Positions 9,820-63,310 of a DNA stretch of 64,000 bases are shown here, piece after piece. Each line of letters starts with the position of its first letter. Within the stretch, counting starts at the first letter, position 1. The stretch is from a virus: IMG/VR virus record IMGVR_UViG_3300037258_001099, positions 64,001 to 128,000 of that record; one strand, 5' to 3'. The notes under the pieces were generated by a model, which searched no databases, was not told where the DNA came from, and worked only from the letters and a program-made list of their open reading frames with translations. The position numbers were made by a program, and so were the translations under genes.

Positions 9820-9879
9820 GCCAACGTATTAAGGAAAAGTCGGTTTCACGCACATTTTTGGAAAGGACAAGAGCAGTTC

Positions 9880-36750: not shown

Positions 36751-37239
36751 CTACCTCTTTCCTCTCTCCTGGCTGTACCAACGCTGATACTCTCGCGCAA
36801 ACTGGTCTCGCAGCTCTGGGCTGAGATCACCAAGCTCTGGGTCGTACCATGTTGGTATTTCTGCGTAGGTTTTTGCCAAGCGCTCTATGTCATAGGTCTT
36901 CTTGATAGAGAGGTGATAGGCCACATCATCCTCTGCCATCTTCCTTGCCTGATCAAGGGCAAAGACTTTTAGCTGGTCTTCCCAGCCTGCTGATGCTTGG
37001 TAGTATGCTTTTTGGTACCGAGCCACATAAACGTAATGAAACATTCGATAGTCGTTGGTAAGATCTTTGTGCGTTTCCTGCAAGCTTCTTGCGCGAGCCG
37101 ATGCAAAATCGAATAGCTCCCGTTGATGAAACGTTACTCCCGATGTTTTGCTGTCGGCGTAGTCCTCACTTGCATCATCTGAGGCAAGTTGCTGAACTTC
37201 AAGTTCCGCTTCAGGGAGCGGATAAAGTGTGTTTGCCAT
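36751..37239 (-). CDS. Hypothetical protein
   Basis: AGAAAGGAAA RBS before ATG 37239. Confidence 0.6.
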   Translation of the reverse strand: MANTLYPLPEAELEVQQLASDDASEDYADSKTSGVTFHQRELFDFASARARSLQETHKDLTNDYRMFHYVYVARYQKAYYQASAGWEDQLKVFALDQARKMAEDDVAYHLSIKKTYDIERLAKTYAEIPTWYDPELGDLSPELRDQFAREYQRWYSQERGKR

Positions 37240-37278: not shown

Positions 37279-37450
37279 TTGTATCACTAATCGACTTTGT
37301 GACGTATCCCTGCCCGAAGGTAGAGACTCCTACGCTGTTTCCAACGTTAGACTCGTCCGGCCTAATAATTGCTTTTGCCCAAGTGTTAGGATGTTCACGG
37401 CGGCATTTACATCTCTATCTAGTTCGCACCCACAGGCGCAAGAGTGCCAT
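37279..37450 (-). ncRNA. Predicted TnpB omega-RNA (scaffold ends ...CGTCAC at 37299; guide AAAGTCGATTAGTGAT...); 5' boundary approximate
   Basis: Hairpin TCTCTACC-TTCG-GGCAGGGA after the tnpB stop, then the TCAC end motif typical of IS200/IS605 right ends. Confidence 0.6.
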
Positions 37451-38523
37451 CGCTCCGAGAGATCTTTCTTACGGATAGTTCCGCATCCTGAGCATGTCTG
37501 ACTTGTGTAGGCTGGATTCACAAAGAGGACTGTCCGCCCAGCATTTGCAGCTTTGGCTTTGACCATCTCTGTAAAGCTATGCCATCCCACATCATTGATA
37601 CTTTTGTTAAGACCTGCCTTGGTGCTTGCTCCATTAGGTAGGTACTTCCCGTTTCCATCCTGCTTTGCCTTTGGTCTCTTGCTCAGATTGGCGGGTGCCA
37701 AATCTTCAAACACGATTATCTGGTAGCGATTGACCAGCTTTCTGGACTCTTTGTGGTGAAAGTCTCGTCTCTGGTTACGCACTTTGCGATAAGCTTTGGA
37801 AACTGTCTTGACGGCGTTCTTACGCCTGTGAGAACCGCGCCTCTTACGGGAGAGTGTCTCTTGCAGCTTCTTGAGCTTATTCTCAGATTTTCGATAATGA
37901 CGCGGATTATCGATCATTTTACCATTCGAGAGAGCAGCAAAATGCGCAATACCCAAGTCTATGCCTACATCCTCATAAGCTACTAGCAACTTCTCAGCTT
38001 CGACTTCGCAGACAAATGTCACATACCAGTGCTCACCCTCACGTTTGATCGTACATGTCTTAATCTTGCCTTCAATAGGACGATGAAACCTGATGTTGAT
38101 TGAGCCAATTTTTGAGAGATTGAGCTTAGCATGCTTCTTCTCACCAACTTTGAGCTTCCATCCCTGCAATTCAGGATAAACAAAGCTATCATAGCGGTTG
38201 TACCCCTGAAATCGAGGAAATCCTGGCTTTTCTCCACGTCTTACTCGTTTGAAGAAGCCTTGGAATGCTAAGTCAACACGCTTTATCACGTTTTGTAGTA
38301 CATGGGCGCTAATATCTTTATACTCAGTCCTGATTGCTTTGATCTCTGGAAGATCGCCCTGTTGGTCATAATAGCTGATTGATTTGCGTTTATACTTCCA
38401 AGCTTCTTTTCGTTCTTGCAAAGCAGCGTTGTAGAGCTCTCTACACCGATCAAGAATCCATTGCAGCTTCTCAGCTACTTCTTTATTTGGATAAAGGCGA
38501 TATCTAAAGCTTTTCATGTTCAT
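37330..38523 (-). CDS. tnpB: RNA-guided endonuclease TnpB
   Basis: FRYRLYP, CRELYNAAL, RuvC GIDLG / FEDL / DRDVNAA, Zn finger TSQTCSGCG...CACG. Confidence 0.95.
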   Translation of the reverse strand: MNMKSFRYRLYPNKEVAEKLQWILDRCRELYNAALQERKEAWKYKRKSISYYDQQGDLPEIKAIRTEYKDISAHVLQNVIKRVDLAFQGFFKRVRRGEKPGFPRFQGYNRYDSFVYPELQGWKLKVGEKKHAKLNLSKIGSINIRFHRPIEGKIKTCTIKREGEHWYVTFVCEVEAEKLLVAYEDVGIDLGIAHFAALSNGKMIDNPRHYRKSENKLKKLQETLSRKRRGSHRRKNAVKTVSKAYRKVRNQRRDFHHKESRKLVNRYQIIVFEDLAPANLSKRPKAKQDGNGKYLPNGASTKAGLNKSINDVGWHSFTEMVKAKAANAGRTVLFVNPAYTSQTCSGCGTIRKKDLSERWHSCACGCELDRDVNAAVNILTLGQKQLLGRTSLTLETA

Positions 38524-38686
38524 CTTTTTGCTTCTCTCCTTTCCTTTTCGCGGCATAATCTCTCAATATCCAAATAATCTCACCATTGAATGAACGTTCA
38601 TCTTCCTGTGCAAACTGTTTCGTGTCTTGCCAAACATCCACAGGGAAACGAACTTGTACTTTTTGTTCCGAATGTTTCTCTTTCAT
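38504..38686 (-). CDS. Arc-family ribbon-helix-helix protein
   Basis: VQVRFP...AQEDERSFNGEIIWIL; ATG 6 nt after TATAAT, so probably leaderless. Confidence 0.8.
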   Translation of the reverse strand: MKEKHSEQKVQVRFPVDVWQDTKQFAQEDERSFNGEIIWILRDYAAKRKGEKQKDEHEKL

Positions 38687-38692
38687 GTACCT

Positions 38693-38721
38693 ATTATACA
38701 CCTATTTTAGATGTATGTCAA
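38693..38721 (-). promoter_or_regulatory. Consensus sigma70-type promoter for arc-tnpB
   Basis: TTGACA-17 bp-TATAAT. Confidence 0.85.
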
Positions 38722-38728
38722 TGATAAT

Positions 38729-38749
38729 TAATCGACTTTTTCTTAAATC
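38729..38749 (-). repeat. Copy of dispersed motif TAAG(G/A)AAAAGTCGAT (others at 9829, 47608, 53477, 59286, 61083; half copy at 37288)
   Basis: Direct sequence comparison. Confidence 0.8.
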
Positions 38750-47503: not shown

Positions 47504-47698
47504 AAAAATCTCCTTCTTTGTTGTAATAACAATCTAACTTAGCATTATTATACCACTAAACGCGGGAGGATGTGTCTCTCTCCTCCTCTTCTACCATCCT
47601 GGTCAAATAATCGACTTTTCCTTAAATCGCTGGGGAATAGACGGCCCTCTTGGGAAATAATTGATTCTTTGTTGGTGGATTAATAATCTCTCTTTGGA

Positions 47699-53430: not shown

Positions 53431-53465
53431 AAAAACGAGGGAGGAATCCCTTCGACTCCTCCCTC
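53431..53465 (-). terminator. Intrinsic terminator
   Basis: GAGGGAGGA...TCCTCCCTC stem plus T5 on the minus strand. Confidence 0.7.
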
Positions 53466-53489
53466 TCCTGCATCGCAATCGACTTTTCC

Positions 53490-53717
53490 TTACAATGTTT
53501 GTGTTTGGCTAATCTCTGGGGACATTATAACGCCTTCTTCCGCCCAATCAAGACCCTGATAGTACTCAGTGCGCAGATCGTTTGATCGCTGCTCCACTTG
53601 CTCCTCGGGAACATCACGGATATTGCCGACAATCTGGTAGGGACAGCCCTCCTGGTAGATAGCACAGGCCATCGTGTAGTACCCCCAGCCTTGTGGAATG
53701 ATGACAACTCTTCTCAT
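53490..53717 (-). CDS. Hypothetical protein
   Basis: RBS and upstream extended -10. Confidence 0.5.
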   Translation of the reverse strand: MRRVVIIPQGWGYYTMACAIYQEGCPYQIVGNIRDVPEEQVEQRSNDLRTEYYQGLDWAEEGVIMSPEISQTQTL

Positions 53718-59144: not shown

Positions 59145-59342
59145 TTGGTCTGGTCCTTTCTGCTAAACAAATCATTAGTGGAATAACAATCTATCTTGAG
59201 ATTATTATATCACTTATCAAGAGGTCAAAACAACCTCGTCCTTTGGCTTGTGGGGCTGTTTTCTTGACACAAAATGGGGATGGGGATCGACTTTTCCTTA
59301 CTGTCTTGTGGATGCGATCCCCTTGGAAAGATATATCCTACG

Positions 59343-60834: not shown

Positions 60835-61126
60835 AGGGAAATTCCTCCTCTAACTAAAAAAGATCATATCCTTTCTCTCTTCATTATAGCCAAGCACACA
60901 GCCAGAAAACGCTAAATTTCCGGTAATTCTTTGGAAGGACCACTATATCCATATTTTTCTATTCAATGACAAACAAAAGAGACCCCGCTCTTTTTGTCTC
61001 TTGTTTATAACCTGCTTAGAAAGGAAAACGAAAGCATCAGGCAGAGCAGCAGTCTCTAGACCTTATCATAACACAAAGGGATTAAGGAAAAGTCGATGAA
61101 AGCCCAGGTATGTGCCTATAAGGGTA

Positions 61127-62266: not shown

Positions 62267-63310
62267 ATGGAACCACAACCACAGCGTCAAATGGATTTTG
62301 AGAAAGTCTCGATTGAATATCTCTACAATTACATGCGAAGTCGTATTTACTACCCAGACTACCAGCGGGGTTCTGTTTGGGAGCTGTCCAAGCGCCAGCG
62401 TCTTATTCAGACCATCCTCTCTGGTAGATCCATCGGAACGCTCACCGCTTTTAAAAGAATGAATGAGGATGGTTCAACATCCTACGGTCTCATTGATGGA
62501 CGCCAGCGCTCCGAGACAATCTTCTTTTATCTCGATGGCGCGTTCTCAACGGCAACCCAGGCATCATTTAAAAAGATGGAGCCACGAGCTCAAGTTATCC
62601 AGCCAGGAAGAAACTATGGCGAGCTTAGCCCCTATGCCAGGAGCATCCTAAATGGATATGACATCATTATCTACTCTGCCCCAACCGAAGAAGACAGAGA
62701 GGGACAAGGGCAGTCCTACCGCGACTTAAATAGCCACAAGCGCATGACTCATGCCCAGATACTCAAGTCCTATCCATCCAAGATGAATACTGCTGCAACT
62801 GCGCTCTCTGAGCATCCATTCTGGGTTGAGCTCTATAAAGGACCGAAGAAAGGCGATGAGCGCTTTCGAGGAGCACTTCATACCCTTGTCATGCAGATAG
62901 CAGGGGACTGTATCCCTCAGTCTGATGTCGTTTTGCGGGAATACTCAAGCGGACTCAAAGACAATTTTGTGACTGATGCACTGGTGGAGACATGTAATGT
63001 CAACCTGAGCATTGCATCCCACCTCTTTTCAAAGGTGAAGATTGGCAATCCTTATGAGGCCATCCCAATCTACCAGGCCGTGCTCTTTTTGCTCCGAGAT
63101 AACTATAATCTCGATCATGTAGAAAAGGGGTGCCTCACACCATGGTACGAAGAGCTCCAATCGGAATCCTTTAAGGCAAGGTATATCGGAGGACGGTCAG
63201 TCTTCTATAAGCTAGCGCAGCTTGAAGAGCAACGCTACTTCTGGGAGCACAAGGGCCAGCTTGATAAGGTAAAGAATAGTATACGAAAAGCGCAGAGAGT
63301 GACAACATGA
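62267..63310 (+). CDS. DUF262 (ParB/Srx-fold, GmrSD N-terminal-like) protein
   Basis: PDYQRGSVW, LIDGRQR, YRDLN motifs. Confidence 0.8.
   Translation: MEPQPQRQMDFEKVSIEYLYNYMRSRIYYPDYQRGSVWELSKRQRLIQTILSGRSIGTLTAFKRMNEDGSTSYGLIDGRQRSETIFFYLDGAFSTATQASFKKMEPRAQVIQPGRNYGELSPYARSILNGYDIIIYSAPTEEDREGQGQSYRDLNSHKRMTHAQILKSYPSKMNTAATALSEHPFWVELYKGPKKGDERFRGALHTLVMQIAGDCIPQSDVVLREYSSGLKDNFVTDALVETCNVNLSIASHLFSKVKIGNPYEAIPIYQAVLFLLRDNYNLDHVEKGCLTPWYEELQSESFKARYIGGRSVFYKLAQLEEQRYFWEHKGQLDKVKNSIRKAQRVTT

Follow-up and report, generated by a model that had tools for sequence, protein, structure and literature searches.

An arc-tnpB cassette without a left end at one copy of a repeated gene-head motif in a phage genome: a candidate for homing without TnpA

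The closest described counterparts of the locus reported here, an arc-tnpB cassette in a phage genome, are ISDra2-type TnpB of the IS200/IS605 family of insertion sequences (IS), the Arc-containing IS605 elements, the TldR proteins and the free-standing homing endonuclease genes of T-even phages. The cassette is located in a window of 64,000 nucleotides (the whole stretch of DNA that was analysed), which represents bases 64001-128000 of a 136,990-bp IMG/VR virus record (IMGVR_UViG_3300037258_001099; ~91 % complete). With ISDra2-type TnpB, as portrayed in the available parts of two reports (Karvelis 2021, PMC8612924; Nakagawa 2023, PMC10097598), the window protein shares the same three Pfam domains, the D/E/D residues and the Zn finger. 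Moreover, in both cases the scaffold of the guide RNA (omega-RNA) overlaps the end of the open reading frame (ORF) and finishes with ..TCAC, and the guide corresponds to the right flank. Unlike the ISDra2 system, the window cassette is devoid of left-end hairpins and of a TnpA encoded in its genome, is flanked on its left by a near-copy of its target and carries arc upstream of tnpB. On the protein level, residues K76/F77 of ISDra2 TnpB are replaced by A/H in the whole clade and T123 is replaced by Q in the phage protein (and in one further relative, L067). The Arc-containing IS605 elements (Moon, Zedaveinyte, Wiegand, Sternberg 2026, 10.64898/2026.09.24.754181) resemble the window locus, as far as the available part of that report describes them, by the location of arc beside tnpB, a strong promoter and repeated boxes. 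According to the same part, the native transposon promoter of IS605-family elements is bound and repressed by their Arc, and this also holds for elements consisting only of arc and tnpB. In contrast to these elements, arc and tnpB in the window are co-directional and overlapping, reside in a phage and lack the left end; the role proposed for the window's Arc is taken over by analogy.

TldR proteins (Wiegand et al., PMC10705468) likewise represent TnpB-family proteins on phage DNA with a guide resembling a promoter-proximal site. According to the available part of that study, however, they have lost the catalytic triad and find their cognate transposon-adjacent motif (TAM) at the target, whereas the window TnpB retains the triad and the TAM of its clade misfits the sites in question. 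The free-standing homing endonuclease genes of T-even phages share with the proposed cassette that a nuclease gene between phage genes cuts the allele lacking that gene; they are copied in during co-infection, and sequence differences protect the self allele (available part of PMC13565253). Recognition by the cassette would, in contrast to these endonucleases, be RNA-guided, with the displaced target copy as the probable guide template. The same 2026 review discusses, in the part available, a TnpA-independent "transposon non-restorative homing" of IS605. Left-end-less TnpB cassettes with spare target copies were not found in the part of the published literature that was searched.

The window locus is probably a homing-type, Arc-controlled TnpB cassette devoid of its left end, or the scar of such a cassette, inserted in one copy of a motif of the phage; that it homes actively today is doubtful. 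Its parts are listed below, coordinates of the locus referring to the minus strand unless (+) is given.

38729-38745, minus strand: motif copy at the cassette
38740-38745, minus strand: TAAGAA, 5' half of this left motif copy, at the would-be TAM position
38724-38739, minus strand: left near-copy of the target, AAAGTCGATTAaTtAT, completing the phage motif
38693-38721, minus strand: sigma-70-type promoter TTGACA-17-TATAAT (12/12 matches)
38504-38686, minus strand: arc, 60-aa ribbon-helix-helix protein (PF03869)
37330-38523, minus strand: tnpB, 397 aa, ISDra2-type (PF12323, PF01385, PF07282)
37299-37394, minus strand: omega-RNA scaffold (right end), 3' 96 nt, finishing ...CGTCAC (covariance model)
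37283-37298, minus strand: predicted 16-nt guide template AAGTCGATTAGTGAT (with the A before it, AAAGTCGATTAGTGAT)
36751-37239, minus strand: next phage gene downstream, 162 aa, no family, ATG at 37239

The tnpB stop codon is followed by ~30 nt, ...GGGCAGGGATACGTCAC ending at position 37299, and then by AAAGTCGATTAGTGATACAA; AAAGTCGATTAGTGATACAAT is located between the scaffold end and the 162-aa phage gene. The guide boundary at 37299, as originally placed by the initial annotation, is right, since multi-copy relatives and a covariance model agree on it. A Ktedonobacter genome contains a tnpA-tnpB IS, the TnpB of which is 63 % identical to that of the window, in at least 13 copies; 13 copies agree up to ...ACGTTCAC and diverge beyond, and their common end ...GGGGAGGTACGTTCAC aligns with ...GGGATACGTCAC of the window. 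The covariance model, comprising the last 99 scaffold positions from 7 right ends, produced 87 matches in 100 sources. The single match in the window (37299-37394, minus strand; 70.9 bits, E 1.3e-16, model positions 1-99) was the 10th best of these. In 75 distinct sequences, 91.6 % of the cells were paired and all 10 modelled pairs displayed both-sided changes, a value reached by 0 of 500 shuffles and contrasting with 37-58 % in slid controls. The guide is predicted to start at 37298 and to run downward, reading AAAGTCGATTAGTGAT. The first 11 nt of its template are the displaced 3' part of a motif copy, without the TAAGGA half.

The phage TnpB was assigned by Pfam (PF12323, E 1.1e-10; PF01385, E 2.6e-24; PF07282, E 7.2e-23) and aligns to ISDra2 TnpB (8bf8/8exa/8h1j) over residues 3-379 (E 5e-49). 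An alignment of 19 sequences revealed RuvC residues D189, E273 and D371 as well as Zn-finger residues C344, C347, C362 and C364 to be invariant. D189/E273/D371 align to D191/E278/D361 of ISDra2 TnpB (8bf8), so that the intact D/E/D initially read from the ORF is corroborated by both alignments. E278 and D361 are the remaining residues of the ISDra2 RuvC triad. D191 is named in the available part of PMC8612924. Judged by its residues, the phage TnpB appears to be full-length and catalytically intact rather than a dead form of the TldR type. A Y1 transposase gene tnpA (PF01797), the absence of which had been proposed for the window, gave 0 matches over all 136,990 bp of the record, with 6 of 14 control genomes positive in this search; TnpA may be supplied by the host.

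The 11-mer AAAGTCGATTA, corresponding to the start of the guide template, occurs exactly at 37288-37298, 38729-38739 and 47608-47618 of the window, all on the minus strand. These exact occurrences confirm the previously noticed 11-nt repeat, with its 14/16 agreement near the arc-tnpB -35 box. One-mismatch copies in the window are located at 53476 (-) and 61089 (+). With up to 2 mismatches, 18 matches of the bare 11-mer were counted against 14.0 +/- 3.4 expected; this is not above chance (20 of 100 shuffles reach 18), and therefore the signal consists of the exact copies and their common 5' context. The initial annotation had listed five more guide-like sites behind TAAG(G/A)A and regarded the latter as a shared TAM. 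The sites match the guide contiguously over 11 nt (47608), 10 nt (53477), 9 nt (59286), 9 nt (61089) and 7 nt (9836; 9/10), and TAAGGA indeed directly precedes all five of them. The hexamer, however, is probably not a TAM, and the sites belong to a phage-wide motif of 16-17 nt, (A/T)T-TAAGGA-AAAGTCG-RY, among the 17 strict copies of which are all six sites initially noted. Copies in the window, besides that at the cassette, are:

47608-47624, minus strand: motif copy, TAAGGA + AAAGTCGATTA
53476-53492, minus strand: motif copy
59284-59300, minus strand: motif copy
61083-61099, plus strand: motif copy
9830-9846, plus strand: motif copy of the AAAGTCGG class

The strict pattern TAAG[GCA][AG]AAAGT[CA]G was applied to the whole phage genome and retrieved these 17 copies, whereas 100 shuffles contained 0.03 on average and never more than 1. 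Likewise, the 15-mer TAAGGAAAAGTCGAT has 21 genome-wide matches with up to 3 mismatches, 8 of which are exact (0-7 in 30 shuffles). When the 17 copies were placed on a crude greedy ORF map (198 ORFs, 88 % coding), 14 fell between genes and 16 shared the orientation of the gene that follows; the cassette's own copy is among the 3 assigned to the inside of a gene, the map having chosen a doubtful antisense ORF there. Around the TAAGGA|AAAG boundary, information content is high between -7 and +7, moderate at +8/+9 and no more than background from +10 onwards. The class reading AAAGTCGG... comprises seven copies, most of them located in the left arm, with a guide match of only 7 nt. The motif appears to be a regulatory-looking gene-head element of the phage itself, because its conserved block is centred on the boundary instead of tracking the guide.

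Two classes of the motif can be distinguished, ...TCGAT.. and ...TCGGY-TYC-RC, the latter with a mini-hairpin. Two copies (53440-53476 and 47560-47608, minus strand) are followed within ~15-25 nt by a G+C-rich hairpin (AGGGAGGA..TCCTCCCT-CGTTTTT and GGAGGA..TCCTCC-CGCGTTT, respectively) and then by a T-rich stretch, which is odd for a plain promoter. Oriented multi-copy operator sites occur in other phages, and by analogy one may guess that the motif is read by a phage DNA-binding protein, a repressor or an activator. A search for Sigma70_r2 in the phage yielded no match (controls positive in 10 of 14), and neither did one for T7-type RNA polymerase, for which the controls were likewise without any match. 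The motif as an IS end or as a remnant of a miniature inverted-repeat transposable element was ruled out by the lack of hairpins and the mere 16-17 conserved nt.

The motif copy to the left of the cassette reads TTTAAGAAAAAGTCGATTA (38747-38729). Written as TAAGAA|AAAGTCGATTAaTtAT, it agrees with the guide over 11 contiguous nt and at 14/16 positions overall, i.e. at guide positions 1-11, 13, 15 and 16, with mismatches at 12 and 14. There is no match at 17-21, the similarity stopping at +16. The 11-nt match ends 7 nt (ATTATCA) upstream of the TTGACA -35 box of arc-tnpB. Thus, the guide matches its own promoter region because the left near-copy of the target abuts the cassette promoter, and it resembles other phage sites because these belong to the same motif family. 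The site reconstructed without the cassette places the motif ~55 nt before the ATG of the 162-aa gene, which is the usual spacing for the motif. The simpler alternative already considered by the initial annotation, insertion into a pre-existing motif copy, is essentially right.

Guide self-matching is not a design of the family. When the first 16 guide bases were compared with ~1 kb of upstream sequence at 72 loci with a model-defined right end, the window scored 14/16 (null frequency of 14, 0.001), L178 scored 13/16 (inside an ORF) and the remaining loci reached at most 11; the arrangement is hence seen in 1 of the 72 loci. Exact guide prefixes upstream measured 11 nt in the window and at most 8 nt in the other 69 valid loci, four loci having been dropped because the slice contained the guide itself. 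Gapped local alignment of right-end flank and upstream region at 75 loci ranked L104/L105 (one element in two assemblies) on top: a 28-nt stretch of right-end flank resembles one ~600 nt upstream of an intact left end (z ~4.9 versus shuffles), which may reflect a neighbouring or nested element.

The TAM of the clade is TTGAR. TTGAA precedes the left end in 13/13 Ktedonobacter IS copies, and the left-end core was found in many more relatives after TTGAG or TTGAA; one of these two pentamers is present in 35/35 distinct flank instances, which speaks against TAAGRA as the TAM. According to the available part of PMC10097598, ISDra2 TnpB contacts its TAM TTGAT via Y52/S56 (-1 T), Q80 (-2 A), K76/F77 (-3 G), T123 (-4 T) and N124 (-5 T). 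Profile alignment maps these contacts to Y51, Q55, Q77, A73/H74, Q120 and G121 of the phage TnpB. Among the loci used for pairing residue and TAM (L005-L016 and L052 of Ktedonobacter sp. SOSP1-85 plus ~25 further relatives), the residue equivalent to S56 is Q with TTGAA in 13/13 cases, albeit from two element lineages only, and K with TTGAG in 22/22. At single-copy boundaries judged by eye, it is S with TTGAT (L063) and M with TTGAC (L068) and ATGAC (L089). From Q55 together with the retained Q77 of the phage TnpB, A would therefore be expected at -2 and -1 (..GAA). The hexamer before the boundary is TAAGGA in 12 of the 17 copies, TAAGCA in 3, TAAGGG in 1 and TAAGAA in 1. TAAGAA belongs to the copy beside the cassette, the only one with GAA at -3 to -1; in the other 16, position -2 is occupied by G or C instead of the A of the clade TAM. 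A common TAM of the form TAAGRA is thus not supported, TAAGGA representing the conserved 5' portion of the phage motif, and the cassette is located at the single motif copy that agrees with the clade TAM in its last three bases. Where ISDra2 TnpB has T123, Gln accounts for 2 of 125 residues (window and L067), most others being Ala or Ser. L067 gives no TAM, because it has no recognisable left end. The protein P0010, encoded on a 123-kb contig, also displays the unusual LQGWK motif. The only clade-type TAM before 6 or more nt of the guide in the whole genome is TTGAG + AAAGTC at 62298-62308 (+) of the window; with ~0.26 such sites expected by chance, it is probably meaningless.

The Arc assignment rests on a PF03869 match (23.2 bits, cut-off 20.4). 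The arc frame overlaps the tnpB start by 20 nt, and two AATAGGT boxes located 11 nt apart overlap the -10 box of the cassette promoter, presumed to form the Arc operator. Arc homologues are positioned directly upstream of tnpB in 7 loci (L058, L060, L063-L065, L068 and L089), confirmed by Pfam in L063 and L089. These relatives possess the same TTGACA-17-TATAAT promoter type, ATAG-containing repeats over the promoter and, ahead of it, a hairpin-rich left end of ~65-100 nt. No left-end hairpins were detected at the window cassette, where only 7 nt separate the phage motif from the -35 box. Compared with these relatives, the cassette is an Arc-tnpB unit of a known kind that has lost its left end. 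A canonical counterpart is provided by the phage-borne TnpB of a 67.5-kb viral contig (L179:3700-4000), with a weak ribbon-helix-helix-like ORF, a palindromic operator over the -10 box and an intact left-end hairpin directly preceded by TTGAC.

The closest relative in hand, L061 (74 % TnpB identity), is located on a 2.2-kb contig between small phage-like flanking ORFs and is likewise devoid of left-end hairpins. A 57-aa ORF takes the place of Arc; its identification as Arc was rejected, as it belongs to no Pfam family and has no tblastn match with the window's Arc. The gene on the left flank (L061:516-549) ends with ..AFRNNEKLS*, and the right-end flank (L061:1991-2013), when fused to the left one at TTTAG|, would give ..AFRNNAALS*. 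Between these gene ends, 15/23 nt and 5/7 residues including the stop are shared (simulation P ~1e-5). In the window as in L061, a cassette devoid of its left end is thus preceded on the left by a TAM-like pentamer and a diverged target copy and followed, beyond its right end, by the original target. Duplication of the target site by a DDE transposase was ruled out, since the cassette has neither inverted repeats nor such a gene.

Beyond the anatomy, boundaries, motif family and clade TAM described above, we infer cutting, homing and the origin of the duplication as follows. The omega-RNA guide would be templated by the right-end flank, i.e. the displaced 3' part of the motif and the next bases, while the near-copy of the target's first 16 nt on the left would keep the phage motif whole. 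Arc would repress the strong cassette promoter. TnpB with its omega-RNA would cut only the uninterrupted version of this motif copy, either in relatives without the cassette or once the cassette has been lost, and repair from a cassette-bearing genome would copy the cassette in, amounting to TnpA-independent homing. Aim at the uninterrupted site in related phages had been offered by the initial annotation as an alternative and is the reading favoured here. As for the origin of the present allele, a cut site may have been repaired from a cassette-bearing template with copying stopped short of the left end, the broken end, with its target retained up to the cut, becoming joined beside the promoter. 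With ISDra2 TnpB, cleavage of the non-target strand takes place 15 nt and that of the target strand 20-21 nt away from the TAM (available part of PMC8612924). The left copy would later have become immune through the changes at guide positions 12 and 14 with its feature kept, which is the motif in the window and the gene end in L061. With flush homology to either side of a later cut, the resulting allele could home without TnpA. The duplication is better explained by such a non-transpositional route, homing or repair, than by IS605 transposition. A bolder version is unlikely: a transposase-free, RNA-guided phage "gene drive", in which the left TAM plus 16 nt would be a fossil of the cut position, the spare copy would restore a non-coding motif and be immune via two changes, and the ribonucleoprotein may also bind the left 11-nt seed without cutting and thereby feed back on its own promoter.

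Several points weigh against homing. AAGAA (consensus AAGGA) fits the clade TAM TTGAA at only 3 (2) of 5 positions; with AA instead of TT at -5/-4, cutting of the empty allele is therefore not assured. Positions -5 and -4 are relaxed in one TnpB, SisTnpB7, according to the available part of PMC11043419; neither this relaxation nor Q120 shows AAGAA to work as a TAM. The layout with duplicated target is known from two loci only, the window and L061, and the similarity in L061 reaches +23, slightly beyond the known cut positions. The same structure could arise without TnpB from Campbell-type integration via the 11-nt microhomology or from illegitimate recombination with a diverged co-infecting genome. 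A cassette-free allele or a related phage was not found. In viral_contigs, the flanking proteins (352 aa and 162 aa) had no relatives and the exact 15-mer motif matched 37 contigs once each, which is chance level and reveals no related phage; blastn of the region against a phage collection gave no match. The only sequencing run containing this DNA, a soil metagenome run that is probably its source, yielded a single contig identical to the window and no alternative junction; RNA runs containing it were not listed. The absence of an empty allele is uninformative, because the searched collections hold no close relative of this phage.

Among the rival explanations, an inert remnant is rather unlikely. 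A host IS605-type element would have transposed next to or within the motif copy, and deletion or illegitimate recombination would later have removed its left end, the repeat being a repair accident, the guide lacking a cleavable target and the whole a decaying passenger. The lack of tnpA in the record and of left-end hairpins at the cassette, the bases before the target that differ from the clade TAM and the failure to find an empty allele in the collections searched all agree with such a remnant. Decay, however, is difficult to reconcile with parts that are all intact, including the 397-aa ORF with its clade-invariant residues, arc, the 12/12 promoter and an omega-RNA scaffold ranking 10th of 87. 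Furthermore, the left junction leaves exactly the promoter and the whole motif, and L061 has the same layout with a spare gene end that preserves the protein and therefore points to selection. The homing-type reading also has to be compared with mere self-regulation, according to which TnpB and its omega-RNA would bind the left near-copy without cutting and, alongside Arc, damp the cassette promoter and/or the motif. The geometry would be suitable (GAA at -3 to -1, 11-nt seed, 14/16, 3 nt from the -35 box), and Gln77, the equivalent of the Q80 that reads A at -2, is retained. TldRs repress promoters with 9-16-nt guides, and their chromatin immunoprecipitation (ChIP) signal reflects binding at TAM plus ~6-nt seed (available part of PMC10705468); as guides of 9-11 nt already repress, weak binding at the left copy may therefore occur. 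Self-regulation as the sole function is nevertheless improbable: the arrangement is present in 1/72 relatives and hence not selected in the family, Arc already represses in such elements, positions -5 and -4 are off the clade TAM, and with a nuclease intact by its residues, stable 14/16 binding would risk self-cleavage.

The regulator of many sites proposed by the initial annotation, a domesticated TnpB that would bind numerous phage promoters or operators via a TAAGRA TAM and a 9-11-nt seed, is highly improbable. What speaks for it is that the same 6 nt before the seed were counted for every motif copy, that RNA-guided repressors with short guides exist (available part of PMC10705468) and that Q120 is unusual at a TAM-contact position. 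The conserved block, however, extends over 7 nt before the boundary and over only 7-9 nt of the guide, being at background from +10, and 7 of the 17 copies match the guide over just 7 nt. G or C occupies -2 in 16 of the 17 copies, although A is the base that the conserved Gln should read there, and TTGAR is the TAM of the clade. In addition, the protein is a full-length, active-type nuclease with intact triad, unlike TldR, and its relatives are without guide self-matching. A phage DNA-binding protein is the simpler reader for a motif of 17 copies and two classes, which would be older than the single-copy cassette.

The relatives of the window's TnpB (52-75 % identity, including a cluster at 74-75 %, P0002-P0013) originate almost entirely from Ktedonobacteria, other Chloroflexota and soil metagenomes, and therefore the phage host probably belongs to the Ktedonobacteria/Chloroflexota group. 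Around the cassette, no terminator-like sites were found between 37150 and 38900, a gathering scan of the window with Rfam gave 0 matches, and the flanking proteins (352 aa and 162 aa) contained no Pfam families. A second, unrelated TnpB of 441 aa (PF07282, 73.3 bits) is encoded in the phage genome outside the window (G000:C1:39890-41215 (+); L194:547-1872) behind its own TTGACA-type promoter; it had no match with the omega-RNA covariance model (R1), and no duplication of its flanks was seen.

On a practical level, the locus cautions that a multi-site guide match need not mean regulation when an element has landed in a repeated motif. Two directly testable by-products emerge, namely a candidate rule relating residue to base for TAM position -1 (Q with A and K with G, and tentatively S with T and M with C) and the 17-copy gene-head motif of this Ktedonobacteria-type soil phage. 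If homing is true, TnpB cassettes would persist and spread in phage populations without TnpA, and their flanks would record the entry, with the target kept to the cut site and subsequent escape changes. An RNA-guided member would then join the phage homing endonucleases, and not only coding ends but also regulatory sites would be seen to be preserved by a spare copy.

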